NCBI GenBank assembly: GCA_002448475.1 | Contig: DJYI01000049.1 | Coordinates: forward strand, 5,475-69,474 | Source: Verrucomicrobia bacterium UBA6982 | GTDB taxonomy: Bacteria; Verrucomicrobiota; Kiritimatiellia; RFP12; UBA3636 | Direction of reading: 5' to 3' | DNA length: 64,000 nt | Shown: piece after piece, positions 1 to 33,716 of the stretch | Position numbering within the stretch: position 1 is the stretch's first letter | Layout of the letters: each line of letters opens with the position of its first letter | Translations under genes and position numbers: made by a program | The notes under the pieces: generated by a model | The model's input: only the letters and a program-made list of their open reading frames with translations | Told to the model about the DNA's origin: nothing | Database searches by the model: none

Positions 1-224
1 GCATCCGTTTCGACGACTCCGAAGTCGATTTTTCCAAGGACACCGTCGCCCTGTATCGATATGACGGCTCGATGTGGCGGCGCGTTGGCAAGGCCACAAG
101 CGGCATCCACGTCGAAACCAACGAGCTTCAGCCGCGCTACGATTCCGAGTCCGACAACTGGAACATCGGCTGGCTCGCCGTCGTCCGCAAGCGCATCAAT
201 CCCTTTGTGCTGGTTGTCCGGTAA
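1..224 (+). CDS. 3' end of an upstream gene truncated by the window edge. The encoded C-terminus is ...NWNIGWLAVVRKRINPFVLVVR*.
   Basis: Open frame from the window edge to TAA at about 222-224, with GC3-biased codons. It ends in the same hydrophobic-x4-5 plus Arg C-terminal motif seen on four other secreted proteins in this window. Confidence 0.45.
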   Translation, partial: IRFDDSEVDFSKDTVALYRYDGSMWRRVGKATSGIHVETNELQPRYDSESDNWNIGWLAVVRKRINPFVLVVR

Positions 225-2659: not shown

Positions 2660-2769
2660 TGTTCGAGAATCCGAATGCAGTCGAATGCCGTCGATAGCGG
2701 TCGATGGCAATCGATTGCAGCCGGTAGCAGTCGATTGGGCTCATTGCCAGTTTTCCTTCCAACACCGTC

Positions 2770-5472
2770 ATGTCATGCATCCCCGTCGGCCTCGTCGCCG
2801 AATTCCTTGAAAATCCGATATGCCTTGAAACCCCGACGCCGCGCCTGTCGTGGCGTCTTGACGATTCGCGCACCGGCGCGAGGCAGACTGCATATCGCAT
2901 CGTCGCCGCGTCGTCCGCCGCCAGACTCGAAGCGGAGCATTGCGACATCTGGGACTCGGGCAAGGTTCGGAGCGAAAACACGCTGGACATCGTGTGGGGT
3001 GCAGGGCCGCTGCGTTCGCGCGCTTCCGTCTTCTGGCGCGTAATGGTCTGGGACAAGGACGGCAAGCCTTCGCCGTGGAGCGCCATCGCGCATTTCGAGA
3101 TCGGGCCGTTTGCGCCGGGCGACATCGCGGCATCGTGGATTGGCTCCGCGCGGCCCCGCACGAAGTCCGACATGCCCGTGCCGATGTTCCGCAAGGCGTT
3201 TTGCCTGCCCGCCGCGCCGGTCCGTGCGCGGCTCTACGCCACGGCCTTCGGAGATCTCGCAATGTCCGTCAACGGCCGCCCCTCCGGCGATGACCTCTTC
3301 GTGCCCGGATGGACCGACTACGGCAAGCGCGTCCCACTCGTCGCATGGGACGTGACGCCGCATTTGCGCGCGGGCGAAAACGTCCTTGGCGCGATGCTCG
3401 CAGACGGCTGGTTCGCCGGGACGATGGTCTGGCCGGACCACCGCAACCATTACGGGAGGCACACCGCCTTCATGGCGCAGCTGGAGGTCGAGTTCGCCGA
3501 CGGAACGCGGCAGGTCGTCGTCTCGGATGCCTCCTGGCACTGCACGGAGCGCGGCCCCATCCGCGCTTCGGACCACTACAACGGCGAAACCTACGACGCG
3601 AGGCTTGAAATGCCCGGATGGGACGCGCCTGGCTTCGCCGCGCGCGGCTGGCGTCGCGCCGCCGTCATCGAGGACCGCCCCAACGCGGCGCTCTGCGGCC
3701 GCATCGCCGGCCCGGTGCGCCGGCAGGAGGTCCTTGCGGCCCGGCGCCGCACCGAGCCGCAGCCGGGGCGCTATGTCTTTGACTTCGGACAGAATATGGT
3801 CGGCGTGCCGCGCATAGCCCTGAGCGGCAGCCCCGGAGCGAAAATCACGATCCGCTACGCCGAGATGCTCAATCCCGACGGCACGCTCTACACCGCCAAC
3901 TACCGCACGGCCAAATCGACGGACGTTTACATCTGCGGCTTGGCAGCCACAAAGAACACAAAGAGGCACAAAGGTTTTGCGGACTCCGTGTCCTCTGTGC
4001 CTGGAAATGAAACCTACGAGCCGCGCTTCACCTACCACGGCTTTCGTTATATCGAGCTTTCCGGCGATTTTTCCGCGCCGCCGGAATGCGGCGACGTCGT
4101 AGGCGTCGTTATCCATTCCGACATGGCGCAGACCGGCGCATTCGAATGTTCCGACCCTCTCGCCAACCGGCTCTTCTCCAACATCAACTGGGGGCAGCGC
4201 GGCAACTACTTCGAAGTGCCGACCGACTGCCCGCAGCGCGACGAACGTCTCGGCTGGCTCGGCGACGCGCAGGTCTTTATCCGCACCGCCGCCTACAATC
4301 GCGACATCGCGGCCTTCATGGAAAAGTGGATGCGCGACATCTCCGACGCGCAGCACGCCGACGGCGCCTTCACGGACATCGCGCCGGATGTCTTTCCCTT
4401 CGAGAACCACGGGCACTGCGGCTACGCCGACGCCGGCGTGGTCGTCCCGTGGACGATGTACCAGTTCTACGGCGATCTCGAAATCCTCCGGCGGCACTTC
4501 GACGCCATGGCGCGCTGGGTCGGCTGGTGGGAGCGCATCGCCGGGCCGGGGCTCGTCATCCCCTACAGGGGCGAAGGCAGCTGGCACTACGGCGACTGGC
4601 TCGCGGTCGATTGCCCCGTGGACGAAGACGGCCATCCGATCCGGGAAGGCGCCCCGACCCCGACCGACCTCCTCGCGACCGCGTATTTCGCGCGTTCCGC
4701 CGGCATCGTGGCCGACGCGGCGCGCGCCCTCGGGCGCAAGGCCGACGCGCGGCGGTTCGACGCGCTCCGCCGCCGCGTGGCAGCCGCCTACCGCCGGCAG
4801 TTCGTGACGCCCGGCGGACGTGTCGCGGGCGACACGCAGACCGGGTATCTCGTCACGCTCGGATTCGGGCTCGTGGACGACAGACAAACCGTGGCCCGCA
4901 TGGTGGACAGGCTTGCGTTCCTCGTCGAGTCGCGCGACTGCTCGCTCACGACGGGATTCCTCGGGACGCCGCTCGTCTGTCCCGTGCTGACGCGATTCGG
5001 CCGCGCCGATCTGGCCTACAGGATCTTCCAGCGCCGCAAGTATCCGTCATGGTATTTCCAGATACTCGACGGCGACGCCACGACGATGTGGGAGCGCTGG
5101 AACAGCTATTCCTCCAAGTCGGGCTTCGGCGACGCGAACATGAATTCCTTCAACCACTACGCCTACGGCGCGATAGGGGAATGGATGTTCGAAACGCTCG
5201 CCGGCATCTCTCCCATGGAGCCGGGCTTCCGTAAAATACGGTTCTCGCCCATCCCGGGAGGGGATGTGACCTGGGCAAGGGCATCGATCGCAACCAGACA
5301 CGGAACGGCGTCGATCCATTGGCGCAAACAGAAGGGCGGCCGCATCGCCGTCGATCTCGTCGTTCCGCCGTGCACAACCGCCGTGCTGGAACTGCCCGGC
5401 GCCGCGCCGCGCGAACTACAGGCGGGGCACCACCACATGACCGTCCAGGGCCTTCCGGGAAACTTCGCATAG
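2770..5472 (+). CDS. alpha-L-rhamnosidase, GH78, cytoplasmic (no signal peptide).
   Basis: N-terminal PRLSWRL motif and the GH78 catalytic-region signature EVPTDCPQRDERLGWLGDAQVF. Length 900 aa. Confidence 0.85.
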   Translation: MSCIPVGLVAEFLENPICLETPTPRLSWRLDDSRTGARQTAYRIVAASSAARLEAEHCDIWDSGKVRSENTLDIVWGAGPLRSRASVFWRVMVWDKDGKPSPWSAIAHFEIGPFAPGDIAASWIGSARPRTKSDMPVPMFRKAFCLPAAPVRARLYATAFGDLAMSVNGRPSGDDLFVPGWTDYGKRVPLVAWDVTPHLRAGENVLGAMLADGWFAGTMVWPDHRNHYGRHTAFMAQLEVEFADGTRQVVVSDASWHCTERGPIRASDHYNGETYDARLEMPGWDAPGFAARGWRRAAVIEDRPNAALCGRIAGPVRRQEVLAARRRTEPQPGRYVFDFGQNMVGVPRIALSGSPGAKITIRYAEMLNPDGTLYTANYRTAKSTDVYICGLAATKNTKRHKGFADSVSSVPGNETYEPRFTYHGFRYIELSGDFSAPPECGDVVGVVIHSDMAQTGAFECSDPLANRLFSNINWGQRGNYFEVPTDCPQRDERLGWLGDAQVFIRTAAYNRDIAAFMEKWMRDISDAQHADGAFTDIAPDVFPFENHGHCGYADAGVVVPWTMYQFYGDLEILRRHFDAMARWVGWWERIAGPGLVIPYRGEGSWHYGDWLAVDCPVDEDGHPIREGAPTPTDLLATAYFARSAGIVADAARALGRKADARRFDALRRRVAAAYRRQFVTPGGRVAGDTQTGYLVTLGFGLVDDRQTVARMVDRLAFLVESRDCSLTTGFLGTPLVCPVLTRFGRADLAYRIFQRRKYPSWYFQILDGDATTMWERWNSYSSKSGFGDANMNSFNHYAYGAIGEWMFETLAGISPMEPGFRKIRFSPIPGGDVTWARASIATRHGTASIHWRKQKGGRIAVDLVVPPCTTAVLELPGAAPRELQAGHHHMTVQGLPGNFA
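3946..4003. repeat. Short palindromic element of the CACAAAG-repeat family, inserted in frame in the rhamnosidase gene.
   Basis: GCCACAAAGAACACAAAGAGGCACAAAGG....CCGTGTCCTCTGTGCCTGG. Its 5' arm matches the intergenic element at 63825..63945. It encodes ...AATKNTKRHKGFADSVSSVPG.... Confidence 0.5.
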
Positions 5473-5547
5473 GCCACTTCACATTGGCCAAACAATACAG
5501 CGTGCTATTTTTTTCCAACGAATCGAGAGCAATCGGGTATTCTCCAG

Positions 5548-6606
5548 TTGAGGGCGCTGCACGCCCGTCCCCGAATGATCTCGATCGTCGAAGAACTCCG
5601 CACGAACCGCGAAAGCGGCGCAAAACGGCTTGAAGCCGAATACAAGGCCGGTCTCATGACTCTGGCCCGGCGCTTCCACGCCGACGAAGGCGACGCCGAG
5701 GAACTCGTCAACCGCACGCTGGCCGAAGTCATCGCGGGCATCGACGCCTATCTGGAGCAATCCGCCTTTTTCGGCTGGATGTGCAAGATCCTCGAAAACC
5801 AATACTCCAAGGACGTGCGTCGCAAGTCGAACAGGACAATTGTCGAGGCACCCGAAGCATTGGACGCGGCGGACGACGCGGATGCGGCCAACCGGATTTT
5901 CCGCGAAGTCGATGCGGCGATTCTCCGCGACGCCATCGCCACGCTTCCCGACGACATGAAGGACGCGCTCATGCTCCGCTATTTCATGGACATGCCCGTC
6001 GGGCGCGTGGCGAAAATCCTGTCGGTCCCGGAGGGCACCGTGAAGTGGCGCCTGCATTGCGCCCGGCTCACGCTCTCCGCCAAGCTCGGCGCCGCCGCGA
6101 AGAAGCCGGGCGGCAGGTCCGTCCTCCTCGCGCTGGCGCTCTGCGGCTTCGCGGCACTTGGCGCGGCGGTGTGGAACCTCGGGTGGGGCGAGCCGTCCCG
6201 GCGAGCCGACGCCCCCGCCTGGGCCTACGGCGAGGGGACGGGCGGGACCGGCGGGACGGGCGGGACCGGCGGGACGGGCGGGACCGGCCTTCAACCTTTC
6301 AACTTTTCATCCGAACAATCAACTGAACAACCCCAACAGGAAACCTCCTCTATGACCATACGCACACGTTCCGCGGCGCTGGGCGCCGCCTCCGCGCTGG
6401 CGCTTGCCAGTGCGCCTTCCGCCGCCTCCGGCGACGAATACCAGTTCATCGTCTCCGGCGATCCGGCCGCCGCCGCGACGGCGGGCGTCGTCGAGGCGGA
6501 ATCGACGGCCGGCCCGCTGGACGTCCGCCACCATGCCGTCGCCGAATCGCGCGCGATGGCCCTTTCGTCGATCAAAAACGGCAGTTTCGTCATTGTCGTC
6601 AGGTAG
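5548..6606 (+). CDS. ECF-type sigma-70 factor (regions 2 and 4) whose ORF continues, with no stop codon, through a TM segment, a GTGG tandem repeat and an intergenic-type octamer array into a small secreted-protein coding segment.
   Basis: Sigma region 4 helix-turn-helix LMLRYFMDMPVGRVAKILSVPEGTVKWRLHCAR. It is followed by the TM-like segment SVLLALALCGFAALGAAVW, then EGTGGTGGTGGTGGTGGTG, then LQPFNF (from the CTTTCAAC array), then MTIRTRS.... Confidence 0.6.
   Translation: MRALHARPRMISIVEELRTNRESGAKRLEAEYKAGLMTLARRFHADEGDAEELVNRTLAEVIAGIDAYLEQSAFFGWMCKILENQYSKDVRRKSNRTIVEAPEALDAADDADAANRIFREVDAAILRDAIATLPDDMKDALMLRYFMDMPVGRVAKILSVPEGTVKWRLHCARLTLSAKLGAAAKKPGGRSVLLALALCGFAALGAAVWNLGWGEPSRRADAPAWAYGEGTGGTGGTGGTGGTGGTGLQPFNFSSEQSTEQPQQETSSMTIRTRSAALGAASALALASAPSAASGDEYQFIVSGDPAAAATAGVVEAESTAGPLDVRHHAVAESRAMALSSIKNGSFVIVVR
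6232..6290. repeat. Tandem repeat of an 18-bp unit (GGGACGGGCGGGACCGGC), about 3 copies, encoding (GTGG)n.
   Basis: Direct reading of the sequence 6232-6290. Confidence 0.8.
6291..6320. repeat. CTTTCAAC octamer array (CCTTCAACCTTTCAACTTTTCA).
   Basis: The same motif array is found at 9781-9803, 9893-9920 and, reverse-complemented, at 63740-63773. Confidence 0.7.
6352..6606 (+). CDS. Possible separate small secreted protein (85 aa) with a signal peptide and a C-terminal ...NGSFVIVVR.
   Basis: ATG at 6352 is followed by the signal-peptide-like MTIRTRSAALGAASALALASAPSAASG. It is in the same frame as the sigma ORF with no intervening stop. The C-terminal motif is shared with four other secreted proteins. 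Confidence 0.4.
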   Translation: MTIRTRSAALGAASALALASAPSAASGDEYQFIVSGDPAAAATAGVVEAESTAGPLDVRHHAVAESRAMALSSIKNGSFVIVVR

Positions 6607-6638
6607 CAAACTCGCCCAAAAACAAAGGAGAACACACC

Positions 6639-8009
6639 ATGAACCTCGCAAAACGTCTTTCGCTTCTCGCCTGCCTGTCCGCCGCGTCGGCCGCCACGGC
6701 CGTTGACGTGACCAACGTCAAGATGACCCAGAACACCGTCAACTGCAAGGTGACCATCACCTACGAACTCTCGGGACCGGCCGTCGTCACGCTCGACATC
6801 CTCACGAACGCCATTCCGAATGCTACGACCGGGTGGACATCCATTGGCGGCCAATACATCTCCAGCGCAACGGGCGCCGTATGGCGCAAGGTGACGGACG
6901 CCGACGCCGCGAACGGCGTCTGCACGATCACATGGAAGCCGGCCGATTCGTGGCTCGACGAGAGCGGCGAAGGCTTCAAGGTGGGCGACGGCTGCGCCAA
7001 GGCCGTCGTCTCGGCCTGGCCGCTCGACAATCCGCCCGACTACATGGTGGTGGACCTCTCCGCCTCAGCGCAGCCGAACACGCAACGCTACTACCCGGCC
7101 GTCGATTTCCTCCCCGGCGGGTTGCTCGACAACGGCGACTACCGCGAATCCTCGCTCGTGATGCGCAAGGTCCCCGCCGCCGGCGTCGAGTGGACGATGG
7201 GCAGCGTCGCCGAGCTTGGCCGCATCACTGCCAAAGAGGCGACGCACAAGGTGCGACTTGACGCCAACTACTACCTCGGCGTATTTCCCGTGACGCAGTC
7301 GCAGTGGGCACTCGTCCAGCCGAGCCGCCCGAATCCGTCATGCTTCCAATACGAGGCCGACAAAAAGTGGCGCCCCGTCGAATATGTCTGCTACAATGAG
7401 CTACGCCTCAGCAATTCAGAAACAAGCGGAGCGGCGACCTACTACTGGCCGAACCCTCCGCACGCCAACTCCTTCATTGGTCGTCTGCGCACGAAGACCG
7501 GCATCGCGTTCGACCTGCCGTCTGAGGCGCAGTGGGAGTTCGCCTGCCGCGCAGGGAACGGAGAGGGCAAGTGGGGCGACGGTTCGGACTACCTGTCCAA
7601 CACGACCGACGCCAACCTTGCGGCCCTGGCCTGCTACGGGCGCGCAGACATCCAGAACCAGGTGTCCGAGGGCAACACGACCTGGTCCGCCGCCGACGGC
7701 GGCACGATGCCGGTTGGCACCCACGCCCCGAACGCATGGGGCTTCTACGACATGAACGGCAATGTATTCGAGCCGTGCAACGACTGGTTCGAGAACAATC
7801 CGTCCGCGCATGGGGGAGCCGTGAACGTGGATCCCGCCAATCCCGCGAAAGACCTCACCGGCAACGCTGGCACATATCGTGTCTGGCGTGGAGGCTCGTA
7901 TCGCCACTCCGCCGCATCGTGCCGTAGCGCCTTTCGCACAGAGGGAATTTCCAACGGCCGCTACAACATCGCAGGCGTCCGCGTAGCGTGCCCCGCAAGC
8001 GCGGAATAA
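6639..8009 (+). CDS. Secreted protein with a C-terminal formylglycine-generating-enzyme (FGE/SUMF1)-like domain.
   Basis: Signal peptide. Motifs HKVRLDANYYLGVFPVTQSQW, WEFACRAG, YDMNGNVFEPCNDW and RVWRGGSYRHSAASCRSAFR are typical of the FGE-sulfatase domain family. A good RBS (AAAGGAG) lies upstream. Confidence 0.8.
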   Translation: MNLAKRLSLLACLSAASAATAVDVTNVKMTQNTVNCKVTITYELSGPAVVTLDILTNAIPNATTGWTSIGGQYISSATGAVWRKVTDADAANGVCTITWKPADSWLDESGEGFKVGDGCAKAVVSAWPLDNPPDYMVVDLSASAQPNTQRYYPAVDFLPGGLLDNGDYRESSLVMRKVPAAGVEWTMGSVAELGRITAKEATHKVRLDANYYLGVFPVTQSQWALVQPSRPNPSCFQYEADKKWRPVEYVCYNELRLSNSETSGAATYYWPNPPHANSFIGRLRTKTGIAFDLPSEAQWEFACRAGNGEGKWGDGSDYLSNTTDANLAALACYGRADIQNQVSEGNTTWSAADGGTMPVGTHAPNAWGFYDMNGNVFEPCNDWFENNPSAHGGAVNVDPANPAKDLTGNAGTYRVWRGGSYRHSAASCRSAFRTEGISNGRYNIAGVRVACPASAE

Positions 8010-8057
8010 GGCTGAAAGGCTTTCGAAGCCCCTGCGGCGATCATCCGAACCCAAGAC

Positions 8058-9761
8058 ATGAAAACAATATTCCTTCTCGCCGCCGGCTTCTCCCTGGCGG
8101 CGGGCGCCCCGGCGTGCGCCGCCGGGCAGGATACCCGCCTCGCCGAACACGGCGGCCGCGTCTGGCGGCTCTCGCCGGGCTGCCGCATCGACGGCGACCA
8201 GCTCACGGTCTCGATCCCGGAGGGCCTTTACCCGCAGACCCAGTGGGCGCGGACGGACATCGACCTCTCGCCGTGGGAGGGGCGCGGCTTCGAGGCGCAC
8301 GTCCGGGTCCGCGGCGAGGACATCGCCACGCCGACGCAGCCGTGGCTCGGCTTCAAGTTCATGCTCAGCTGGCGCGACCGGTTCACGGGCGCCATGCGCT
8401 ATCCCGGCGCCGGCGCGCCGCTCGGCGCGTTTCCGTGGCAGGACGTCTCGTTTCGCCAAATGGGCTGGTTCCGCGGTGCGGATGGCCCCGGCACACTCCA
8501 TCTCGGGCTTCAGGGAACATCCGGCACCGTCGTCTTCGACCTCTCGTCGCTCCGCATCGGCGATCTCGCGCCGATCTGGCCCGTCACGAACCAGAACCAC
8601 CGGTGCGAGTATTTCGCACCGAAGGGAATGTTCACAAATCTCAAGTGTTCACAAATCGACAATGCCACAAATAACAATTGCGGCGCGCCCGGCGGTCGCG
8701 CCCTACCGGTAGGGGCCGACCGCCGGGCGGCCCGCAATTTTGATTCGCCATTTATGAACAATGATGAACAATTGTCATTTGTGAACAATGCCGCCAAGCG
8801 GCTCGCTCCCCTAAGGGGCGTGATGTCGCCAAGCGGCCGCGACATGAACGAGGACGACTTCGCGACGCTCGCCTCGTGGGGCGCGACGCTTCTGCGCTAC
8901 CAGATGGTGCGCGACTGGCACGGCGTGGGAACCAACGCCGACCTCGAAGACTACGACCGCTGGCTGGACGGCAAGCTCGACCATGTCGAGGGCGTCGTGC
9001 TGCCGCTCGCCCGGAAATACGGGCTGAAGGTCGCCATCGACCTGCACGTCACGCCCGGGGGACGCGACGCCTCGCACGAAATGAACATGTTCCACGACGC
9101 GACATTCGCCGGCCATTTCGTCGAATGCTGGCGACGCATCGCGCGGCGCTTCAAGGGCAACGGCGACGCGATCTACGGCTACGACCTCTGCAACGAGCCG
9201 CAGCAGCAGCGCGCGGCGCCGCCGGGAATGGACGGCTGGAACCTCCAGCGCCGCGCCGCCGAGGCGATCCGGGAAATCGACCCGGAAACGCCGATCATCG
9301 TGGAATGCAACGCCAACGACGCGCCGGACGGCTACCGCAACCTCTCGCCGCTCACCCTGACGAACGTCATCTACGAAGTCCACATGTATGGGCCCGGCGA
9401 CTTCACGCACCAGGGGATCCAGGGGATGTCGATGGCGCGCTGCCGCTGGCCGGACGCGTCGCGCGGATGGGATGCTGGCTTCCTGCGCTCCGCGCTCGCG
9501 CCAGTGCGCCAGTTCCAGCTGCGCCACGGCGCGAAAATCTACGTTGGCGAGTTCAGCGCCGTCGCGTGGGCGGAGGGCGCGGACATCTGGCTCCGCGACA
9601 TCATTTCCGTTTTCGGGGAATACGGCTGGGACTGGACCTACCACGCCTTTCGCGAATGGCGCGGATGGAGCGTCGAGCACGAAGGCCCGGACATCGACCA
9701 CATGGCGCCGTCCGCCGACAACCCGCGCAAGCGCGCCCTTCTGGAGGGCCTGCGGCGCTGA
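8058..9761 (+). CDS. Secreted CBM-like plus GH5 glycoside hydrolase, paralog of the C-terminal part of 233..2659.
   Basis: Signal peptide MKTIFLLAAGFSLAAGAPA. GH5 motifs GYDLCNEP and VGEFSAV. Alignable to ORF1 across the beta-sandwich and the TIM barrel. Confidence 0.8.
   Translation: MKTIFLLAAGFSLAAGAPACAAGQDTRLAEHGGRVWRLSPGCRIDGDQLTVSIPEGLYPQTQWARTDIDLSPWEGRGFEAHVRVRGEDIATPTQPWLGFKFMLSWRDRFTGAMRYPGAGAPLGAFPWQDVSFRQMGWFRGADGPGTLHLGLQGTSGTVVFDLSSLRIGDLAPIWPVTNQNHRCEYFAPKGMFTNLKCSQIDNATNNNCGAPGGRALPVGADRRAARNFDSPFMNNDEQLSFVNNAAKRLAPLRGVMSPSGRDMNEDDFATLASWGATLLRYQMVRDWHGVGTNADLEDYDRWLDGKLDHVEGVVLPLARKYGLKVAIDLHVTPGGRDASHEMNMFHDATFAGHFVECWRRIARRFKGNGDAIYGYDLCNEPQQQRAAPPGMDGWNLQRRAAEAIREIDPETPIIVECNANDAPDGYRNLSPLTLTNVIYEVHMYGPGDFTHQGIQGMSMARCRWPDASRGWDAGFLRSALAPVRQFQLRHGAKIYVGEFSAVAWAEGADIWLRDIISVFGEYGWDWTYHAFREWRGWSVEHEGPDIDHMAPSADNPRKRALLEGLRR
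8626..8790. mobile_element. MITE-like element (TGTTCACAAAT-TIR family, about 165 bp) inserted in frame in the GH5 paralog linker.
   Basis: 5' end ATGTTCACAAATCTCAAGTGTTCACAAATCGACAATG. 3' end ATGAACAATGATGAACAATTGTCATTTGTGAACAAT (inverted). GC-rich palindromic core GCGCGCCCGGCGGTCGCGCCCTACCGGTAGGGGCCGACCGCCGGGCGGCCCGC. The ends are similar to the TIRs of the composite element at 10876..11380. It encodes 61 extra aa at the same linker position where ORF1 carries a different element. Confidence 0.7.
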
Positions 9762-9780
9762 CGTAGAGGCCTGCGCCCCA

Positions 9781-9920
9781 TGCGCCGACAACCTTTCAAC
9801 CGTTCAACCGGATTTATTGGGACAGACCCCGTAGATTCAAAAATGTTGCCAGTGTGAGACTGTTGCCAATTGCCAATCCCAATTCCAATTGGCCTTTCAA
9901 CTTTTCAACCTTTCAACTGT
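9781..9920. repeat. Intergenic region, relatively AT-rich, bounded by CTTTCAAC octamer arrays (CAACCTTTCAACCGTTCAACC at the 5' end; CCTTTCAACTTTTCAACCTTTCAACTG at the 3' end). Internally it has CCAATTG repeats.
   Basis: Direct reading. The 27-mer at 9893-9919 is identical to the reverse complement of 63740-63773. Confidence 0.7.
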
Positions 9921-9923
9921 TTA

Positions 9924-10733
9924 ATGTTTTCCATCGACCACGACCTGCATTGCCACACGCACCTCTCCGGTTGCTCCAACGACCCGGAGCAGACGCCGGA
10001 AAATCTCCTCGCGTTCGCCACGGCGCATGGCTACGCCGCGATGGCCTTCACCGACCACTTCTGGGACGCGCCGGCCGTTCCGGGGTCGGAAGGCACCTAC
10101 CTCGACGGCTGCGGTCTGGAACACGTGTCGGCCGATCTGCCCCTGCCCGACGGCGGTCCGGTGCGTCTTGTCTTCGGCTGCGAGACGGAACTTTCGTCTG
10201 CGAGGGTTCTCGGCCTTGCTCCGGAACATTGCGACCGCTTCGGATTCATCGTCATTCCCCCCAACCATTTCCACATGACGGGATTCGTCCGCCCGGCGGA
10301 GTGCGCGACGGCGGAACGGCGCGCCGAACTTCTGGTCTCTCGCCTGGAAACCGTGCTTGGCATGTCTCTGCCCTGGGAGAAAGTCGGGATCGCGCACCTC
10401 AACTGCGGACTCATGTTCGCCGACGGCGACCTCGGGGCGGTGCTTCGCGCCGTTCCGGAGGACCGCTTCCGCGACGCCATGCGCGGCTTTGCCGAACGTG
10501 GCGCCGGGATCGAACTCAACATGGCGAGCTTTGACGCGAACCGCCGGCGCGGCGTCTCGCCGGAAGACGCCCTGCGCCTCTTCCGCTTCGCCCGGGACGA
10601 AGGCTGCCGCTTCTATCTGGCAAGCGACGCCCACCACCCGGCCGGACTCGAACTCGTCCCCGGCATCGCGTCAGAGATCGTGGACGCGCTTGATCTTGAC
10701 GCCCGCCACGTTTACAGGCTGCCCGAGCCCTGA
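9924..10733 (+). CDS. PHP-domain (polymerase/histidinol-phosphatase family) metal-dependent phosphoesterase.
   Basis: N-terminal MFSIDHDLHCHTHLSGCS...AFTDHF is the PHP-domain His motif. The ORF track starts at 9870 within the repeat; the Met at 9924 is the likely start. Confidence 0.7.
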   Translation: MFSIDHDLHCHTHLSGCSNDPEQTPENLLAFATAHGYAAMAFTDHFWDAPAVPGSEGTYLDGCGLEHVSADLPLPDGGPVRLVFGCETELSSARVLGLAPEHCDRFGFIVIPPNHFHMTGFVRPAECATAERRAELLVSRLETVLGMSLPWEKVGIAHLNCGLMFADGDLGAVLRAVPEDRFRDAMRGFAERGAGIELNMASFDANRRRGVSPEDALRLFRFARDEGCRFYLASDAHHPAGLELVPGIASEIVDALDLDARHVYRLPEP

Positions 10734-10768
10734 TATCCGATTGTGTCGCGCGCTTCCGCTCGTCGTCG

Positions 10769-10875
10769 CTACAGCCCGACGACGTGAATCGTCTTGCCGC
10801 CAAAAGCCACGTCGCGGGTGAAAAGCCGCTCGTCCCAGGACTTGCCGGAGTCGTCGTCGAAGACCGGCATCCAGC
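10769..10875 (-). pseudogene. 3' fragment (last ~35 codons) of a second copy of the AAA-ATPase/PD-(D/E)XK gene (paralog of 18658..20232).
   Basis: About 105 bp are roughly 90% identical to 18658-18765, including the stop codon. Homology ends abruptly at the left TIR of the inserted element. Confidence 0.7.
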
Positions 10876-11380
10876 TCGAAGAATTGTTCACAATTGACAA
10901 TTGAGACAAATGTTCACAAATGGGAAATGACAAATTCATCTTCTGTCCTGTTCGTTAAGATTTCGCCGGGCCGTTGTCACGCTTGCGTAGAAAATCTTTA
11001 TCAATTCTTCGGTTTCCTGCAATACGTGCGACACGAGATTTTGATCGGCATAATTCCTCATCGCGATGATACGAAGCCACATTCTGGTTTCAATGAGTTC
11101 CTTGAGCGCGATATTTGTCTTGTGGGCGAAATCTTTGCGCGATTCCGGAACGCACGCCTCGGCATAATTGGCTGCAACCGACGTGGCTGCTCGAAACAAT
11201 TGGTCCTGGAGGTGCGCTTTCCCGATTTTGGAAACCATGGATTCGCAAACATCGATGGCCGCTGCTGCAAAAGCCGCTACCCGGAATTCAATTTCGGAAG
11301 ACGTTAGCATGGCAAATTGCGTTTTGTTATTTGTGAACAATTGTTTCAATTGAAAATTGTGAACACTCTAGCAGAGCGCG
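10876..11380. mobile_element. AT-rich (about 45-48% GC) ~0.5-kb element with ~50-bp imperfect terminal inverted repeats of the TGTTCACAA family. It carries a four-helix-bundle gene and replaces the middle of an AAA-ATPase gene copy.
   Basis: Left TIR ATTGTTCACAATTGACAATTGAGACAAATGTTCACAAAT. Reverse complement of the right TIR AGTGTTCACAATTTTCAATTGAAACAATTGTTCACAAAT. Low GC compared with the flanks. Flanked by the N- and C-terminal fragments of the ATPase paralog. Confidence 0.7.
10936..11310 (-). CDS. Four-helix-bundle protein of the 23S rRNA intervening-sequence / DGR Avd-like family (PF05635/TIGR02436-like).
   Basis: Motifs LQDQLFRAATSVAANYAEACVPESRKDFAHKTNIALKELIETRMWL match the family consensus (L..Q..RAA.S...NIAEG ... 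S.K.F..........E....L). Length about 124 aa from ATG 11310; the ORF track's TTG at 11349 lies inside the TIR. Confidence 0.75.
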   Translation of the reverse strand: MLTSSEIEFRVAAFAAAAIDVCESMVSKIGKAHLQDQLFRAATSVAANYAEACVPESRKDFAHKTNIALKELIETRMWLRIIAMRNYADQNLVSHVLQETEELIKIFYASVTTARRNLNEQDRR

Positions 11381-11577
11381 ACTGCGTCGCCCTTGGCGTT
11401 GATTTCGCGGACGAGCGCCTTGACGGTTGTCGTCTTGCCCGTCTGTCGCGGCGCGTGGATGACGAAATACGTCTCCTGCTCGACAAGGCGCCGAATTTCC
11501 GGCATCCGGTCGAGAGCGGGCAGCATGTAATGCTTGGCGGGAAAGCAGGGGCCCGCGACGTTGAAGAACTTTTCCAT
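11378..11577 (-). pseudogene. 5' fragment (first ~66 codons) of the second AAA-ATPase/PD-(D/E)XK gene copy, ending at the element junction.
   Basis: Encodes MEKFFNVAGPCFPAKHYMLPALDRMPEIRRLVEQETYFVIHAPRQTGKTTTVKALVREINAKGDAVALC*, near-identical to the N-terminus of 18658..20232. The upstream region also shares the TGGTAGCAT -10 element. Confidence 0.7.
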
Positions 11578-23371: not shown

Positions 23372-26008
23372 CTAGCGCACAACCATCACAAACGGGGGCG
23401 AGACGAGTTCATCGGTTTCCGGGCCCACGGCGCTGAATGCCGCATAGCCGCCGGAAGCCGATTTCGGGAGATGCGCCTTTTTGTCAATGGAGTCCCAAAG
23501 CGCAACGAGGCCGTTCTTGAGGCGGACTGGCTGGAAACGGCGGACAGGCTCGCCGTCCTGCCTGAGTTTGAGCCAATAGAGACGCGATTTTGCGAACGAT
23601 GCGGCCGTGCCGTTCTGGTTGTTTGCGAAGAGGTATAGATTCTTTCCGGTGTTGATGTCGTCGGCAAGCGACCGGGATGAAACGACCGTCGAGGTCTTCG
23701 CCTCGTCGTCGATGATCGTGATGACTTGCGATCCTGCCGAAAACGAAACGCGCGCGTGGTTGGTCGCGTTGCAATACAGGCGATAGACGTCCGCGTAGCC
23801 CGCGCCCCACTGCGATGCGGGCGTGGCGGGATCGCTCAGGCTGGGACGCCAATACGAGTCGGCGTAGCCGAAGGCGAGCGTGTCCAGGGCACCGTGATAC
23901 CACATGTAGAACCGGGAATTGGCGTCGCTGCCGAGCGATCCGAGGAAGCACTCCTCGCCGCCGCCGTTCGGGCGCAGGTTCGTCTCGATGAATTCGGCGG
24001 TCGTCCCAGCCTTGCCAATGACGCCCGTATCGACATACTGCGTCCCGTCAGTTTCGACATATTCGAGAAAGGCATCGACGGAAGAGCGGGCCGATTCTTC
24101 CGTCACCTCTCCCGTGTTGCCTTCGGCGGGAATGGCGGGAATCGGGTAGAAAATGCGCTGCGAGACGGTATCGTAGAGCGCGGCCTGGCCGTCCTTCACG
24201 CACGGCTTGAAATCGCGCACCGGCGTCTCGCCGCCTTGGTAGATCGCGAGCCCGTAGCAACGCGCGGCGGAACGGTAGATCGGCTTGCCGTTCTTCGTGT
24301 CGTTGCAGGCGAAGAGGTAGAGGTTGCCTTTGCCGGAGGCTTCGCCGGACCAGGTCTGGGGTGTCGTCGTGGGCGAACCGCCCTCCGGCGTCAGCGTGAC
24401 GGACTGCGCCCCTGCGGCGAACGACACGTCGAAGGAGTATTTCGTTCCAGCTTCATACGCAGAGCCGAAGGACTTGGTGTTGTTGCCATATCCGATCCAC
24501 GGCTTCTGCGCGGTCTGGTCGATCATGTAAAAGCGGTTGGCGTCAGAACCGCTGTTGTAGCATCCGCAGGCGAGATAGGAATGGTGGTTTTCGTCGAGAT
24601 ACTGGTTCTCTTCGTCCGACGTGCGCATCTGCGTCCACGCCATCTCGCCCGTCGCGCGCGTCGGAGAGCTGGCGTCCACCTGCGTGTCGAGGTGCGTGAA
24701 GCCGTCGGACTCGATGTAATCCACGAACACGACATCGTCCGGGGAGGCCGCGACCGAGTTGTCGAACTTGAGCGGATCGCCTTCCGGATAGAAGATGGTC
24801 TTCGAGACGTCGTCGTAGAGCGCTGCCTGGCCGTATTTGAGGCACGGGCGGAAGTCGCGGACCATCACGCCGTCCTGGAAGAGCTTGAGCCAATAAACGC
24901 GCGCCTTGCCCCAATACTGCTTGGCGAGCGCACTGCCGCTCTGGTTGCAGCAGAAGAGATACAGGCTGCGACCGGTGTCGATGGAGGTCGTGCCAGTTCC
25001 CGCGTAGCTTCCCACGACGCTTCCCTCGGGACCTCCTTCGCGAACCGTGATCGCCTGGTTTCCGACGGCGAACGACGCATCGACATGGTATCGCTCGCCG
25101 GGCGTGAAGGTGCCGAACGTTCCATACGAGCCATAGCCCCAGAGCCATTTGTCGCCCGTGTTGCGGTGGACGAGGTAGAAGCGCTTGTTCGTTCCGTCGC
25201 GTGAATCCAGCAGCGCCTGGTCGGAGCTCGTTCCGATCCAGGCCATTTCCATCTGCGCGGCGGTCCCGGAGCGACCGGTCACCTTTGTGTCGATGTAGGA
25301 ATTGCCCTCAGACTCCACGTAGTCGATGAAGGCGTCGGGGACGTCGCAATTGGTGTCGTAGGTCAGGTCCGTGCCGGAAGCGGAGTAGTAGATTTTGTCG
25401 TTCTGGGAGTCGTAGAGACCGGCGCGACCGCCGTGGACGCAGGGGCGGAAGTCGCGGACGAGCGCTCCGTCCTGCCAGATCTTGAGACCATAGCAGCGCG
25501 TCTTGGAGAAGCCCGCCGCCGTTCCGTTCTGGTTGTTGGCGAAGACGTAGAGGTTCAGCCCGGTATCGAGCGCGGTGTAGTCCTTTGAAAACACCTTCGT
25601 GCCGTCGATGATGACCGTATTCGTCGAATAGTTGTTCGCGTCTGCGGCGGAGAAGTCCGTCGCGTAGGTGTAAACGCGCTTTTTCTCAAACAGCAGATCC
25701 TGCCCGTTGTTGACCTTGTCGCCCTTTCCTTGCGCCGTGAACATGTTGCCGGACGTCGAACTGCACCAGCAGGCGTAGAAGCGGGTGTCGCTCGACCAGT
25801 ATCCGGAGGCGAGGAATGCGGAGTCGGCGAGGTTCATCCACTCGACCTTGCATTCGGCCTTGGTTCCGTGGCGTCCGACGACGCCGGTGTCGATCCATTG
25901 CGAACCGGTCGATTCGACGTAGCGGACGAACTTGTCCGGCGTTCCCGCCGAAGTTGTCAAAATCGCGGCGGAAGCCACGAAGACGGACAAGAGAAGATTG
26001 CGATTCAT
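23372..26008 (-). CDS. Large secreted protein built from about 5 tandem ~150-aa beta-sandwich (ConA/LamG-like?) repeats, C-terminus ...PPFVMVVR*.
   Basis: Signal peptide MNRNLLLSVFVASAAILTTSAG. Repeat hallmark (F)IDYVES.G..YIDTGV.G.....(A)LYD.....IFYP occurs five times. Confidence 0.6.
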   Translation of the reverse strand: MNRNLLLSVFVASAAILTTSAGTPDKFVRYVESTGSQWIDTGVVGRHGTKAECKVEWMNLADSAFLASGYWSSDTRFYACWCSSTSGNMFTAQGKGDKVNNGQDLLFEKKRVYTYATDFSAADANNYSTNTVIIDGTKVFSKDYTALDTGLNLYVFANNQNGTAAGFSKTRCYGLKIWQDGALVRDFRPCVHGGRAGLYDSQNDKIYYSASGTDLTYDTNCDVPDAFIDYVESEGNSYIDTKVTGRSGTAAQMEMAWIGTSSDQALLDSRDGTNKRFYLVHRNTGDKWLWGYGSYGTFGTFTPGERYHVDASFAVGNQAITVREGGPEGSVVGSYAGTGTTSIDTGRSLYLFCCNQSGSALAKQYWGKARVYWLKLFQDGVMVRDFRPCLKYGQAALYDDVSKTIFYPEGDPLKFDNSVAASPDDVVFVDYIESDGFTHLDTQVDASSPTRATGEMAWTQMRTSDEENQYLDENHHSYLACGCYNSGSDANRFYMIDQTAQKPWIGYGNNTKSFGSAYEAGTKYSFDVSFAAGAQSVTLTPEGGSPTTTPQTWSGEASGKGNLYLFACNDTKNGKPIYRSAARCYGLAIYQGGETPVRDFKPCVKDGQAALYDTVSQRIFYPIPAIPAEGNTGEVTEESARSSVDAFLEYVETDGTQYVDTGVIGKAGTTAEFIETNLRPNGGGEECFLGSLGSDANSRFYMWYHGALDTLAFGYADSYWRPSLSDPATPASQWGAGYADVYRLYCNATNHARVSFSAGSQVITIIDDEAKTSTVVSSRSLADDINTGKNLYLFANNQNGTAASFAKSRLYWLKLRQDGEPVRRFQPVRLKNGLVALWDSIDKKAHLPKSASGGYAAFSAVGPETDELVSPPFVMVVR

Positions 26009-26207
26009 CGTTTTGTTCCCTGTTGTTGACCATGTCGCCCGGCATCCGCCCCGTCCGGGGCGAACTGCGCGGCAACGGGAACGATGATAACGCATCTCCT
26101 TGCAAAAAGCGTTGATTTTGGAGCAAAACTTATTTCGACGAAAAACATTCCACTTCGACGGCCCGACGCGCTCGCCAACAAACCCGACGCCGAACGTTTC
26201 AATTCCA

Positions 26208-26236
26208 TTGACATCAAATCGGCTGTGATGTAGAAT
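26208..26236 (+). promoter_or_regulatory. Canonical sigma70 promoter: TTGACA, 17-bp spacer, TAGAAT, 7 nt upstream of the vapB ATG (near-leaderless).
   Basis: Direct reading: cattgacatcaaatcggctgtgatgtagaatttgtggcATG. Confidence 0.6.
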
Positions 26237-26243
26237 TTGTGGC

Positions 26244-26498
26244 ATGATACGCACGCAAATCCAACTCCCAGACGCCCTCTACGCCCATACCCGGCGCTTC
26301 GCCGCAATCCGCGAAATCAGCATGGCGGAACTTTGCCGCAACTCGCTGGAACTCTTTCTGGCGATCCATCCCCTCGCCGAAGACGGGCCGCCGAGTCGGC
26401 GCTGGGAGCCACCGGTCTGCCGATCCACGGGACTCAAGGCCGATCCGTTCTCCGCCGAGGACTGGCGCGAGCGCATCTATGCCGCCGACCAGGAATGA
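26244..26498 (+). CDS. vapB: Antitoxin of a type II TA pair (ribbon-helix-helix/VapB-like), 84 aa.
   Basis: Small ORF immediately upstream of and adjacent to the PIN gene. N-terminal MIRTQIQLPDALYA has beta-strand-then-helix character. Confidence 0.55.
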   Translation: MIRTQIQLPDALYAHTRRFAAIREISMAELCRNSLELFLAIHPLAEDGPPSRRWEPPVCRSTGLKADPFSAEDWRERIYAADQE

Positions 26499-31507: not shown

Positions 31508-33661
31508 CTACCGGAACACGATCACTGTGGAGGAGTCCGGCTTGACAACCCAGAGCTCGGTGTTGTTGACGCGCTTTTCCAGGCGAATCCTGCTGGACGT
31601 GGCGGTGAAGGTCGCGGCAATCGGCGAATCCGAACGGAGAATGCAGGCGGAAGTACCGTCGCGGAGTTCCCCGGAGACGACCACGCCCGCGGAGCCCGTC
31701 ACCTCGCCGTTCACTGTGAGGCACGGCACGGCGCCGTCGGTAACCGCCACCGCCAGCGATGAGCCTTCCGCGAAGGTGATGTTGCCGGTGATCAAGCCGG
31801 CGCCGCCCAGCGCCGCCCCGGCGGCGACGGATGGCGATGTGCCGGTGACATCGCCATCAAGCAGAAGAGTCCCTTTCTCGACGGCAAGGGTGCCGTTGAG
31901 CGTGATCGAGCCACCGATGCGCTGCGTTCCTTCGCCGATCTTCCGAAATGCCAGCGTGCCGCCGGTGCGGTTGATGTTACCTTCGAAATCGGCGTCGGAA
32001 TCGTTGTCGCCGACGACGATGGAAGAGTTAAAGCTGTTGTTGAGGGTGATCGTTCCGCGGCCGCGGAGTCCGTTCATCGTGAACGCCGGGGCATTGCCGA
32101 TACGGAGGTTTCCGTCCACGACGGTGTCGCCCGTGCGATTGCCGGAAGGCAGGAACGAGTCGCTCTGGAGCCAGACGTTCCCGACAATGGTCACATCACC
32201 GGTGAAGGTTCCCGTCGAATAGACCGAGAGGCTGCCTTGGCCGGGGTAGGTGGCCGGGACCTGCGGAGTACCCAACGGAATGGATCCGAACGTGATGCCG
32301 GACGATCCGGCAACCGATCCGTGCAGTTCGGAATACTTTCCCGGGCGATTCGTGAAGTAGCCCCGGCGCCCGCCGAAGTCGAGGTTCGCGCGAAGACAGA
32401 CGCGCTGGTTGCTGTCGAGCATGACCGCTCCGGACGTGACGACGAGCGTTCCGTTCGTGGCGACGACTTCCTGCGCGACGGTCGCGTAGCCGGTCGCGAG
32501 GCTGTTCACGACCGTCCGCTGCCCGGTGAACTCGACTTTCGAGACCCCGGACGCGATGTAGACGTTTTCGCCTTCGGTTTCGAGTTCGCCCTCGAACGCT
32601 TCGGAAATGGTTCGGCGCTCCGTGTCGGCCGACAGCGCGCGGAAGCCGTTTGCCGCATCGTAGACGGCAAACCCGGTTTCGGCGATGCGGGCCCACGGGA
32701 CGATCGCGCAGGAGGTCGTGCCGGCGCTGCCGCCGACCGTTTCGACGCCATCTTCGACGAGCAGCCGAACCGCGTTGGCCGCTTCGGCGCTGCCCAGAAG
32801 GGTGTAGTTGTTGGCCGAGATGTCCAGAAGCGTGTCGTGCACCCTGTCGAAAGTTCCGACGCGAACGGTCAACGGCTTGCTCGAACTCCGGAACGAAAAC
32901 ACCGGATACCCTCCTTGGTAGTCGCCCGGAGCGGTTTTCGGCGACGATGCGAGCTGGACCGTGCCGAAGGAATCCTCCGCGCCGCTGCCGTTTTTCCGGG
33001 CGTAGAACTGGACGGTTCCCGCCTCCAGCCGGAGCGTGGACGCGATGCGGCGCCCGGCGTCCGAACCGCTTTCTTCGCCGATGCGGAGAATCGGCATGGC
33101 CGTGTTGCCGGCGGACTTGCGCAGCGTGATCGTCCCCGTTCCGGCGAGGGCTGACGCGCCATAAAAACCGAAGGGATTGGCCGTTCCCTCCAGCATGAGG
33201 TCTCCGTTGGAGAGGGTGTTGTAGAAGGACACGGGAAAGGTCGAGGAGAGTGTGCGCGTCCCGCCGCCCAGATCGATGTCCAGGTGCTGCCCGGCAGTCG
33301 CCGAGCCGAACACCAGGTTTCCTTTGGTCGCCGGCGGAGCCCAGGCCATGTCGGATGCGAACGTGGCCGTACGGTCCGTTCCGTAGCCGCGAAGGATGAA
33401 CGTCACCTCTCCGGGATGAGCGAACGAAAGTCCGTTCTCGCCAAAGGTCCAGTCTCGATCAAAGGTTAGGTTCAACGTGACCTTGGACGTCAGATTGTCT
33501 CCAAAGAGGCCGGAGACGATGCCGTCCTGCCAGTTTTCGATATCGGTGAAGGAGTAGGTTCCCGCTGTCGTCTGAAGCCAGCCGGTGTCGGCGTGTACGG
33601 GGCAGAGTCCTGCCGACAGAAGGGCGAGCGAGGTGAGGGTGAGGAGGGCGTGTGGTTTCAT
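31508..33661 (-). CDS. Secreted beta-helical protein with autotransporter-associated beta-strand-type repeats, C-terminus ...DSSTVIVFR*.
   Basis: Signal peptide MKPHALLTLTSLALLSAGLCPVHA. Repeats such as GGTLAFRKIGEGTQRIGGSITLNGTLAVEKGTLLLDGDVTG. No PEP-CTERM tail. Confidence 0.65.
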   Translation of the reverse strand: MKPHALLTLTSLALLSAGLCPVHADTGWLQTTAGTYSFTDIENWQDGIVSGLFGDNLTSKVTLNLTFDRDWTFGENGLSFAHPGEVTFILRGYGTDRTATFASDMAWAPPATKGNLVFGSATAGQHLDIDLGGGTRTLSSTFPVSFYNTLSNGDLMLEGTANPFGFYGASALAGTGTITLRKSAGNTAMPILRIGEESGSDAGRRIASTLRLEAGTVQFYARKNGSGAEDSFGTVQLASSPKTAPGDYQGGYPVFSFRSSSKPLTVRVGTFDRVHDTLLDISANNYTLLGSAEAANAVRLLVEDGVETVGGSAGTTSCAIVPWARIAETGFAVYDAANGFRALSADTERRTISEAFEGELETEGENVYIASGVSKVEFTGQRTVVNSLATGYATVAQEVVATNGTLVVTSGAVMLDSNQRVCLRANLDFGGRRGYFTNRPGKYSELHGSVAGSSGITFGSIPLGTPQVPATYPGQGSLSVYSTGTFTGDVTIVGNVWLQSDSFLPSGNRTGDTVVDGNLRIGNAPAFTMNGLRGRGTITLNNSFNSSIVVGDNDSDADFEGNINRTGGTLAFRKIGEGTQRIGGSITLNGTLAVEKGTLLLDGDVTGTSPSVAAGAALGGAGLITGNITFAEGSSLAVAVTDGAVPCLTVNGEVTGSAGVVVSGELRDGTSACILRSDSPIAATFTATSSRIRLEKRVNNTELWVVKPDSSTVIVFR

Positions 33662-33716
33662 GGTGTTTGCGTGTTTGTTTTGGTGAATGTCGGTTGCTGT
33701 CGATTGCGATGGATGG

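Follow-up and report, generated by a model that had tools for sequence, protein, structure and literature searches.

Extracytoplasmic function (ECF) sigma factors that are tethered to the membrane by a fused extracytoplasmic extension are an already known kind of system. IutY of Pseudomonas putida (ECF243) is a sigma/anti-sigma hybrid from which proteolysis by Prc and RseP frees the sigma domain, and it is the only ECF sigma factor with a fused extension whose proteolytic activation has been characterised experimentally (PMC8999054). The actinobacterial groups ECF52, ECF53 and ECF48 (e.g. SCO4117) also carry C-terminal extensions, and their activation is predicted to be proteolytic (PMC8999054). 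Here we describe a tethered ECF sigma factor gene from Verrucomicrobia bacterium UBA6982, found in a stretch of 64,000 nucleotides of contig DJYI01000049.1 (assembly GCA_002448475.1), hereafter called the window. In this gene, the sigma factor is followed in the same open reading frame (ORF), at 5575–6606 of the + strand, by a transmembrane (TM) helix, a linker and a small exported module that has a start codon and a signal peptide of its own. Judged from its relatives, the ORF is homologous piecewise to a sigma gene and to the membrane and periplasmic parts of the corresponding anti-sigma factor, with the cytoplasmic anti-sigma domain missing. On account of this piecewise homology we consider it rather probable that the gene encodes a one-polypeptide transmembrane signaller of the sigma/anti-sigma type. 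It probably also yields a free copy of the sensor module.

One reading frame from sigma factor to exported module

The frame is open from a TTG codon at 5548 to the stop codon at 6604–6606 on the + strand, i.e. over 352 uninterrupted codons. This agrees with a previous sequence-only reading of the locus, which had followed the sigma frame through a TM segment, a tandem repeat and an octamer array into a secreted segment. The real start is probably the ATG at 5575, which would give a product of 343 aa, because M-[DTS]-I-V-E-E opens all homologues. Two smaller points of that reading also needed correction. The segment with a signal peptide that ends in FVIVVR does have both of these features, and its length, counted from the ATG at 6352, is 84 aa and not 85 aa. 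The 18-bp x3 repeat in front of it is indeed perfect, but the name (GTGG)n that it had received fits the peptide, (GTG)n, the DNA unit being of 9 bp.

Pfam identified Sigma70_r2 (aa 32–94) and Sigma70_r4_2 (aa 125–176) in the window ORF, and PF04542, PF08281 and PF04545 all exceeded their cutoffs, as did the sigma70-ECF model of NCBIfam (TIGR02937; 67.1 bits for a cutoff of 42.9). The presence of sigma2 and sigma4, with sigma1.1 and sigma3 absent, is that of the ECF (group 4) sigma factors. No subfamily or equivalog model of NCBIfam reached its cutoff for the window sigma factor, which was thus assigned to the general ECF superfamily only, and tblastn revealed no paralogue of it within the window. 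When the 343-aa protein was modelled with AlphaFold2 (AF2), the predicted local distance difference test (pLDDT) amounted to 81–91 over the first 80 residues (nt 5575–5814), which include most of region 2; sigma2 was the sole confident part of the model and the C-terminal half had a pLDDT below 50. The TM segment was modelled as a single continuous helix. It is separated from the end of sigma region 4 by only about 10 residues (GAAAKKPGGR), and neither a FecR or zf-HC2 match nor an HxxxCxxC motif was found in the window ORF with Pfam, NCBIfam or the alignment. The helix is flanked on its N-side by KK..R and is kept in every homologue, with Kyte-Doolittle values of 2.0–2.9. According to the positive-inside rule, few positive charges are expected on the periplasmic side of a TM helix with its N-terminus inside; from this rule and the composition of the linker, the helix is predicted to be N-in and C-out.

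At least five contigs, from assemblies and samples that are independent of each other, encode the identical 343-aa protein. A homologue search in 5.8 billion proteins yielded more than 30 clusters with 99–100% query coverage and 34–77% identity, all of them from Kiritimatiellae of ruminant guts and some annotated by NCBI as single sigma-70 family proteins. We aligned 27 full-length homologues and found that the sigma part and the TM helix were conserved, the linker was hypervariable in both sequence and length, and the C-terminal segment was again conserved. We also took a census of one genome per GTDB species, in which the query was the sigma-plus-TM alignment only. Close relatives (at least 52% identity) turned up only in metagenome-assembled genomes of rumen Kiritimatiellae, with several copies per genome (L009–L024). 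All of the 15 scorable copies, including a second one in L021, were fused in frame to a downstream secreted protein, in ORFs of 345–1181 aa that comprise the sigma factor, the TM helix, the linker, usually a Met with a signal peptide, and then the secreted protein. The fused secreted parts are mutually unrelated (leucine-rich-repeat, LamG-like and long beta-helix-like proteins, and the module of the window in the case of L020). The window gene is the smallest member of a rumen Kiritimatiellae clade that is built on one sigma–TM–linker cassette. A genuine sigma/anti-sigma-like fusion was one of three explanations that the sequence-only reading had offered for the long frame, and the comparison with related genomes that it had proposed came out in favour of it, the same type of long ORF being kept as a single conserved protein.

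Several loci that first seemed to be unfused had to be rejected as such. L003, which looked like a split gene (a 263-aa sigma factor overlapping an 83-aa gene), owes its change of frame to a 10-N scaffold gap in the linker. L001 and L002 resembled stand-alone small genes merely because their contigs begin within the linker; the small module of L001 (P0121) is 98% identical to that of the window. The short sigma homologues of 188–283 aa (P0060, P0102, P0111, P0113, P0068, P0105 and others) represent fused forms that are frameshifted, chimeric or cut off by a contig end, rather than sigma factors that finish at a stop codon of their own. We also noted that P0001 is a mosaic, with a sigma part like that of one lineage and a TM helix, linker and module near-identical to those of the window (versus P0003, P0005 and P0006). 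This points to recombination at the conserved KLGAAAKKPGG boundary, or to a chimeric assembly there.

Neither the small module nor its C-terminal tag belongs to a family of Pfam or NCBIfam. A search with the 84-aa segment alone led to free-standing proteins of 78–85 aa. Two of these (P0126 and P0127), whose signal peptides are classical, are encoded by truly independent genes. Upstream of one lie a PIN toxin-antitoxin pair and an AT-rich spacer of 270 nt that contains a GGTACAAT box, and the other comes after a divergently transcribed gene. An exhaustive search of 1.84 billion representative proteins with a profile of the module gave 66 matches. Most of them were free proteins of 75–115 aa made of a signal peptide and the module, and sigma fusions were also found. 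At least six of the matching clusters (P0152, P0159, P0160, P0175, P0178 and P0181) were zinc-finger anti-sigma factors, in which an HxxxCxxC motif, a TM helix, a linker, Q-G-E-x-x-Met, a signal peptide and the module succeed each other in this order. The pattern of the module family, YQFI(I/V)SGD...[hydrophobic]5-R, is common to these zf-HC2 anti-sigma factors and the window ORF. In one locus (L094), a separate ECF sigma factor of 184 aa, with 33% identity to the window sigma factor, is followed by a module-bearing anti-sigma factor and then by an FGE-sulfatase-fold gene, and the sigma, anti-sigma and FGE genes of L095 are in the same order. The window ORF is devoid of the N-terminal HxxxCxxC domain, in the place of which stands the sigma factor itself. 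The module is homologous to the extracytoplasmic C-terminus, i.e. the sensor end, of classical zinc-finger anti-sigma factors.

The C-terminal tag, five hydrophobic residues followed by R or K, ends 4 of the 597 window ORFs of at least 60 aa (e.g. PFVLVVR, PPFVMVVR and STVIVFR). It is carried by nearly all cargos fused to this sigma clade, in forms such as TLVLIK, FTLVIR, FVIVLR, TVMVFR and FVVVVR, and resembles a C-terminal signal for sorting or anchoring, of a kind not yet described.

Linker, embedded start and competing explanations

To characterise the linker, we compared the three frames of the linker DNA of 17 loci, among which there are about 15 unrelated linkers. In the sigma frame (frame 0), not one of 1040 codons was a stop; K+R made up 3.4% and D+E 14.6%, and 66% of the residues were S, T, G, A, P, Q or N. 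Frame +1 had 10 stops, 20.9% K+R and 2.3% D+E, and frame +2 had 12 stops, 26.3% K+R and 5.8% D+E. The absence of stops, the low K/R content and the in-frame relation at every locus indicate that the linker is a translated, disordered segment of exported type, and in the sigma frame it clearly appears to be under selection as a translated and exported segment. A scan of 5300–8100 for promoter and terminator consensus sequences found nothing, so that there was no sign of a terminator or a sigma-70 promoter inside the ORF or the linker.

The junction retains a complete translation initiation region, consisting of a leader array, a Shine-Dalgarno (SD) motif, an ATG and a signal peptide. It had been remarked from the sequence alone that the octamer array is elsewhere intergenic, and this was confirmed at 9894–9918 and, on the minus strand, at 63743–63771. 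The likeness of the array and the segment behind it to intergenic DNA with a gene start could likewise be accounted for, as they form a conserved embedded initiation region. The internal Met is encoded by ATG in all 27 aligned homologues and by GTG in L020, which makes a start codon in 28 of 28. In 17 of 18 loci the internal start is preceded, at a distance of 5–16 nt, by an SD-like tetramer (GGAG or AGGA), which occurs in 11.5% of random windows of the same ORFs, and the motif is read in the protein as a conserved Q-[GEK]-E. The internal start codon is therefore conserved together with an SD motif at functional spacing, as in nested genes. Stand-alone homologues start at this same residue, with classical signal peptides of the type MKKLLIIG..LVSLA. 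By its residue pattern, the internal signal peptide is of the Sec type, with a positive n-region, an h-region of 10–15 aa and small residues at -3/-1. The h-regions of the internal signal peptides have Kyte-Doolittle values of 0.8–1.7 over 19 aa, under the range of 2.0–2.9 of the TM helices, and in the long protein such a weakly hydrophobic signal peptide probably crosses the translocon rather than stopping transfer. The leader in front of the internal ATG has almost no structure (-2.8 kcal/mol over 78 nt). For the leader of the sigma start, the folding energy is -17.2 kcal/mol over 63 nt, and a small hairpin contains its sole SD-like GAGGG; neither energy differs from that of shuffled sequence, so that both reflect composition.

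The octamer is stop-free in every frame, the arrays are G-poor and unstructured, and the one in the linker shares an exact 19-mer, TCAACCTTTCAACTTTTCA (6291–6309), with the minus-strand copy. We surveyed TTCAAC arrays in 186 kb, made up of the window and related loci. There were 22 of them, and for 21 the start of an ORF on the same strand lay at most 400 nt downstream, mostly at 6–50 nt. The ORFs led by an array include cytoplasmic proteins, for instance a TrpA-like protein and the PHP-domain protein at 9924, whose array is 6 nt from the ATG with no SD. In many other fusions, arrays are located just 5' of the SD motif at the internal start. The TTCAAC array is thus a generic, G-poor 5'-leader element of this organism, and it may act as an SD-independent translation enhancer. 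The idea that the arrays are -35 boxes of an ECF promoter was dropped, because the 6–50 nt to the start codons, a spacing that holds also for cytoplasmic housekeeping genes, leaves no space for a -10 box and a leader. Further octamer or 9-mer arrays were observed at 9793–9810 in the window and in L013 (2052–2073), L016 (610–679), L015 (6–43) and L012 (1431–1445, minus strand). Some arrays directly abut an ATG without an SD, as in L013 and in front of the PHP-like gene at 9924.

The explanation that comes closest to the one we favour is that the ORF encodes nothing but the fusion, i.e. a sigma factor tethered to the module, the internal Met, SD and signal peptide being either a regulated site-1 cleavage site (AxA) for signal peptidase or the decaying relic of a gene capture. 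There is precedent for the former, since signal peptidase is the site-1 protease that acts on the anti-sigma factors RsiV and RsiP. Furthermore, one member of the clade, L018, works without an internal start or signal peptide, and the linker is clearly selected as a translated and exported segment. Yet a protease site has no need for a start codon kept in 28 of 28 sequences and an SD correctly spaced in 17 of 18 loci, in the midst of a hypervariable linker, nor for a leader array that is typical of real gene starts, and it does not explain why free-standing genes begin at the same residue. In addition, the internal signal peptide would already be in the periplasm, and a signal peptide on that side is misoriented for canonical cleavage by signal peptidase. 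We consider this explanation unlikely, and place the signal-peptidase site second after the proposed signaller because it leaves the conserved start codon, SD and leader array unexplained and has the orientation wrong. A polyprotein cut by signal peptidase was rejected on the same topological ground, the internal signal peptide being wrongly oriented after an N-in TM helix.

We give little credence to the view that two independent genes, one for an anchored sigma factor and one for a small secreted protein, lack an intervening stop by chance and that the read-through product is rare or irrelevant. The junction does have every feature of an intergenic region with a gene start, the small protein is free-standing in other genomes, and the TTCAAC arrays are free of stops in any frame. 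This does not account for the in-frame arrangement found at 15 of 15 sigma loci and in at least six anti-sigma clusters, across about 15 unrelated linkers that vary in length, the chance of which is roughly (1/3)^14. Nor does it account for the fact that frame 0 has no stop where 10–12 are expected and is alone depleted of K and R. Besides, with no stop codon each ribosome that initiates at 5575 must make the fusion.

The sequence-only reading had also suggested phase-variable coupling through the tandem repeat, so that a change in copy number would couple or uncouple the two halves. The repeat is perfect, its copy number differs in L001, and the linker is a frequent site of assembly breaks. 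But a unit of 9 or 18 bp is a multiple of three and a change in copy number can therefore not shift the frame, phase-variable (contingency) genes having units that are not a multiple of three. L001 has fewer 9-bp units and is still in frame with the internal ATG, P0001 has fewer GTG units in the alignment, and most homologues are fused although they have no such repeat, which makes a switch of this kind hardly credible. Its third suggestion, that a frameshift or a sequencing or assembly error had deleted the sigma stop codon, is the least credible of all: in related assemblies (L001–L003), linkers rich in repeats are indeed a cause of gaps and contig ends, but the identical 343-aa product is found in independent assemblies and samples, and dozens of diverged homologues, down to 34% identity, have the same architecture and keep the frame through very different linkers.

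The reading that we retain is thus that of a single-polypeptide signaller, with a free, secreted copy of the module probably also made from the same DNA, since the nested start is conserved. In the scheme that we propose, the sigma domain would be cytoplasmic and everything beyond the TM helix periplasmic, with the internal signal peptide translocated. The weak, hairpin-flanked start at 5575 would give rise to a low-abundance long form, in which the sigma factor is tethered to the module (X), and the unstructured internal start at 6352 to a short form, X as a free secreted protein, which would be abundant and would probably outnumber the tethered copies. The membrane tether would hold the sigma factor inactive. 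The state of tethered X would probably be its interaction with the FGE-fold protein encoded by the following gene, a partner for which free X would compete. This state would control the proteolysis of the disordered linker, and intramembrane cleavage would then free the sigma factor. Such a release would parallel that of IutY and the classical regulated intramembrane proteolysis of anti-sigma factors.

Several points weigh against this scheme. The tethered sigma ORF has no anti-sigma domain, and the nested start is not obligatory, as the clade member L018 has no internal Met or signal peptide. With 27 sequences, AF2 modelled the small protein at a pLDDT of about 53 and with no secondary structure, so that there is no confident structure for the module, which may fold only upon its partner. 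The sigma promoter looks housekeeping-like and autoregulation is not indicated, because its boxes resemble those before unrelated stand-alone genes. Initiation at the internal start, the existence of the long form in cells and the proteolytic release are all deduced from sequence, and every sequence comes from metagenome assemblies of uncultured bacteria.

A broader proposal, which we put forward as possible rather than probable, concerns the clade as a whole. The sigma–TM–linker cassette would capture genes of secreted or surface proteins by in-frame read-through, leaving their own ribosome-binding site, start codon and signal peptide intact, and two products would result, an abundant free cargo and a rare sigma-tethered 'sentinel' copy. 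If this were true, one polypeptide would report straight to transcription on the cargo, be it on its export, its assembly, its binding to a partner or its ligand state, in a one-component trans-envelope signalling system. It would also bring with it two further undescribed elements, the [hydrophobic]5-R/K sorting tag and a TTCAAC-array leader able to replace the SD.

Genes and elements around the fusion

The positions of the features in and around the gene are given in Table 1.

Table 1. Features of the sigma–module ORF and its surroundings, in window coordinates
Feature	Position (strand)	Description
Promoter-like element of sigma gene	5513–5543 (+)	T-rich tract, -35-like TTCCAAC (5513–5519), 16 nt, -10-like GGTATTCT (5536–5543)
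GC hairpin in 5' leader	5552–5566 (+)	GGGCG-N5-CGCCC; 5' arm with the only SD-like GAGGG before ATG 5575
Complete ORF	5575–6606 (+)	343 aa + stop; comprises the sigma part, the TM helix, the linker and, from the internal start and its signal peptide on, the small module
Sigma-70 region 2, ECF type	5641–5829 (+)	Pfam PF04542
Sigma-70 region 4.2	5920–6075 (+)	Pfam PF08281, 39 bits (cutoff 25.7)
TM helix	6118–6180 (+)	SVLLALALCGFAALGAAVWNL; Kyte-Doolittle mean 2.16 over 19 aa
Linker	6181–6351 (+)	Hypervariable, acidic/polar, low-complexity; predicted periplasmic
Tandem repeat	6235–6288 (+)	Perfect 9-bp x6 = 18-bp x3 (TRF); encodes (GTG)n
TTCAAC octamer array	6289–6309 (+)	Unit TTCAACCT x2.5; here translated LQPFNFS
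Shine-Dalgarno-like AGGAAAC	6338–6344 (+)	7 nt upstream of internal ATG 6352
Internal start and signal peptide	6352–6432 (+)	n-region MTIRTRS, h-region AALGAASALALA (Ala/Leu), c-region SAPSAAS-G
Exported module	6433–6603 (+)	About 57 aa; DEYQFIVSGD ... LDVRHHAVAES ... FVIVVR (6586–6603)
Partner gene, secreted FGE-sulfatase-fold protein	6639–8009 (+)	456 aa; Pfam PF03781 at 5e-26
GH5 glycoside hydrolase	8058–9761 (+)	Pfam PF00150
Tag-bearing sites	3–224 (+), 23372–26254 (-), 31508–33754 (-), 6586–6603 (+)	C-terminal tag

An FGE-fold gene (456–487 aa) is found directly 3' of the module wherever downstream sequence exists, whether the module is free, fused to an anti-sigma factor or fused to a sigma factor. 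The FGE-fold proteins share 46–86% identity between loci, and the gene is absent behind sigma fusions to other cargos. In one protein of 175 aa (P0177), a signal peptide and the N-terminal half of the module run straight into the C-terminal part of an FGE-sulfatase domain, which speaks for a functional link of the two neighbouring genes unless the protein is the product of a deletion.

The GH5 gene is probably in the same operon, the gaps being of 32 and 48 nt, and variable glycoside hydrolases follow the module–FGE pair in related loci. The upstream neighbour is a GH78 rhamnosidase gene (2770–5472), the GH5 gene is followed by the PHP-domain gene, and more GH5 and GH42 genes as well as an AraC-type regulator lie nearby. 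Since the locus is surrounded by glycoside hydrolase genes, a role in the regulation of glycan or polysaccharide utilisation is plausible. The hosts are abundant uncultured rumen bacteria that degrade fibre and glycans, and loci of this type may be their regulators of polysaccharide utilisation.

The promoter-like element of the sigma gene was placed by alignment; a simple sigma-70 scan did not detect a promoter of the sigma gene. The paralogous sigma genes (L009–L024) have the same upstream layout, with (C/G)(C/A)AAC, about 18 nt, and GGTATTAT or GGTATTCT, and the stand-alone small ORFs have GGTACAAT or GGTATAAT boxes. Hairpins similar to that of the 5' leader are found between the -10-like box and the sigma start codon in L009 (about 3975–3995), L012, L014 and L024, but the stability of the leader hairpin is about that of shuffled sequence (z about 0), so that it is merely a lead. 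An Rfam search (E ≤ 0.1) of 4500–11500 produced one spurious miRNA match only. A hexamer, GTCGAT/CAATCG, abuts the -10-like box of several sigma promoters (5529–5534 in the window). It also forms degenerate arrays with a period of about 10 nt at 2672–2737 (+) and 33688–33730 (-), upstream of the GH78 gene and of the gene for the tagged secreted protein, and it is found within the linkers of L013, L016 and L022, where it encodes ..TDCYRPPATEN...

Three other observations were made in the window. Downstream of the operon, a low-GC island contains a four-helix-bundle gene of the '23S rRNA intervening sequence protein' type (10936–11349, minus strand), which is syntenic in L003 (7537–7911). At 59209–59465, a 39-bp x6.6 tandem repeat that encodes PATEPETPAAEPA units lies inside an ORF (59158–60195, minus strand) beside ABC-transporter genes; it falls in the C-terminal part of the encoded 345-aa protein. 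Finally, a perfect CCGTTTGA x3.8 array of an octamer distinct from TTCAAC is located at 37501–37530, at the junction of a glycyl-radical enzyme gene (35217–37508) and the next ORF (37521–38318).

Comparison with described systems

Fused or tethered ECF sigma extensions are known mostly through bioinformatics. In the passages of the ECF classification paper retrieved by term, C-terminal extensions, including ones with multiple TM segments, are described and an architecture like that of the window is not mentioned, and no paper that connects Kiritimatiellae to ECF sigma or anti-sigma factors came up in our literature search. The minimal design of the window protein, without an anti-sigma domain, raises the question whether tethering alone silences a sigma factor. 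The free small protein, the anti-sigma fusion and the direct sigma fusion form an evolutionary series that shows how a sensor domain is recruited, and the use of the same cassette on many surface proteins illustrates the recruitment of sensors as well. The nested start and signal peptide would let one ORF send the module to two fates, secreted and sigma-tethered. For annotation, this means that ORFs of this type are to be left whole and not marked as frameshifted, and that nested small genes are currently missed by gene callers.

Like IutY, the window protein is a single polypeptide with an N-terminal ECF sigma factor, one TM helix and a periplasmic C-terminal part. IutY has a FecR-type anti-sigma domain and a FecR periplasmic domain and works with a TonB-dependent receptor, whereas in the window protein the TM helix comes directly after sigma4, with no anti-sigma domain between them. 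The periplasmic part of the window protein is a disordered linker with a 57-aa module that is paired with an FGE-fold protein, and it contains a nested start and a signal peptide. Its proteolytic activation is proposed by precedent only. The ECF52, ECF53 and ECF48 proteins resemble it in having an ECF core, a TM segment and a long low-complexity (proline-rich) extracytoplasmic region that ends in a sensor domain. What sets them apart is a carbohydrate-binding domain and a zinc-finger anti-sigma domain that separates their sigma factor from the TM segment; no nested start or signal peptide has been described for them, and they belong to another phylum and another sigma clade.

The C-terminal half of the window protein is homologous to, and collinear with, the L094-type pair of a sigma factor and a zf-HC2 anti-sigma factor in its TM helix, acidic linker, SD/Met/signal peptide, module and FGE gene. 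The L094-type sigma factor (184 aa) is separate and its anti-sigma factor has a cytoplasmic HxxxCxxC domain, whereas in the window the TM helix is attached to the sigma factor itself and the anti-sigma domain is absent. Other transmembrane proteins in which sensing of an extracytoplasmic ligand is followed by cleavage and release of a sigma factor are the RsgI anti-sigma-I factors of cellulolytic clostridia, which sense polysaccharides, and RsiV, which senses lysozyme, together with RsiP. These are separate anti-sigma proteins of monoderms and are cut at the end of their TM helix; the window protein has a second, internal signal peptide.

In-frame nested genes with a long and a short isoform are also known, for instance those of CheA-L/CheA-S, IF2 alpha/beta and ClpB. 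As in these, the SD and start codon that are conserved inside the ORF would yield, in the same frame, a product equal to the C-terminal part of the long form. To our knowledge, both isoforms remain in the same compartment in the known cases, whereas the short form of the window gene would be secreted by its own signal peptide and the long form would be a membrane-tethered transcription factor. What is new with respect to all these systems is the direct fusion of sigma4 to a TM helix, the reuse of one cassette on many tagged secreted proteins, and the conserved nested start and signal peptide that are shared with the anti-sigma set.

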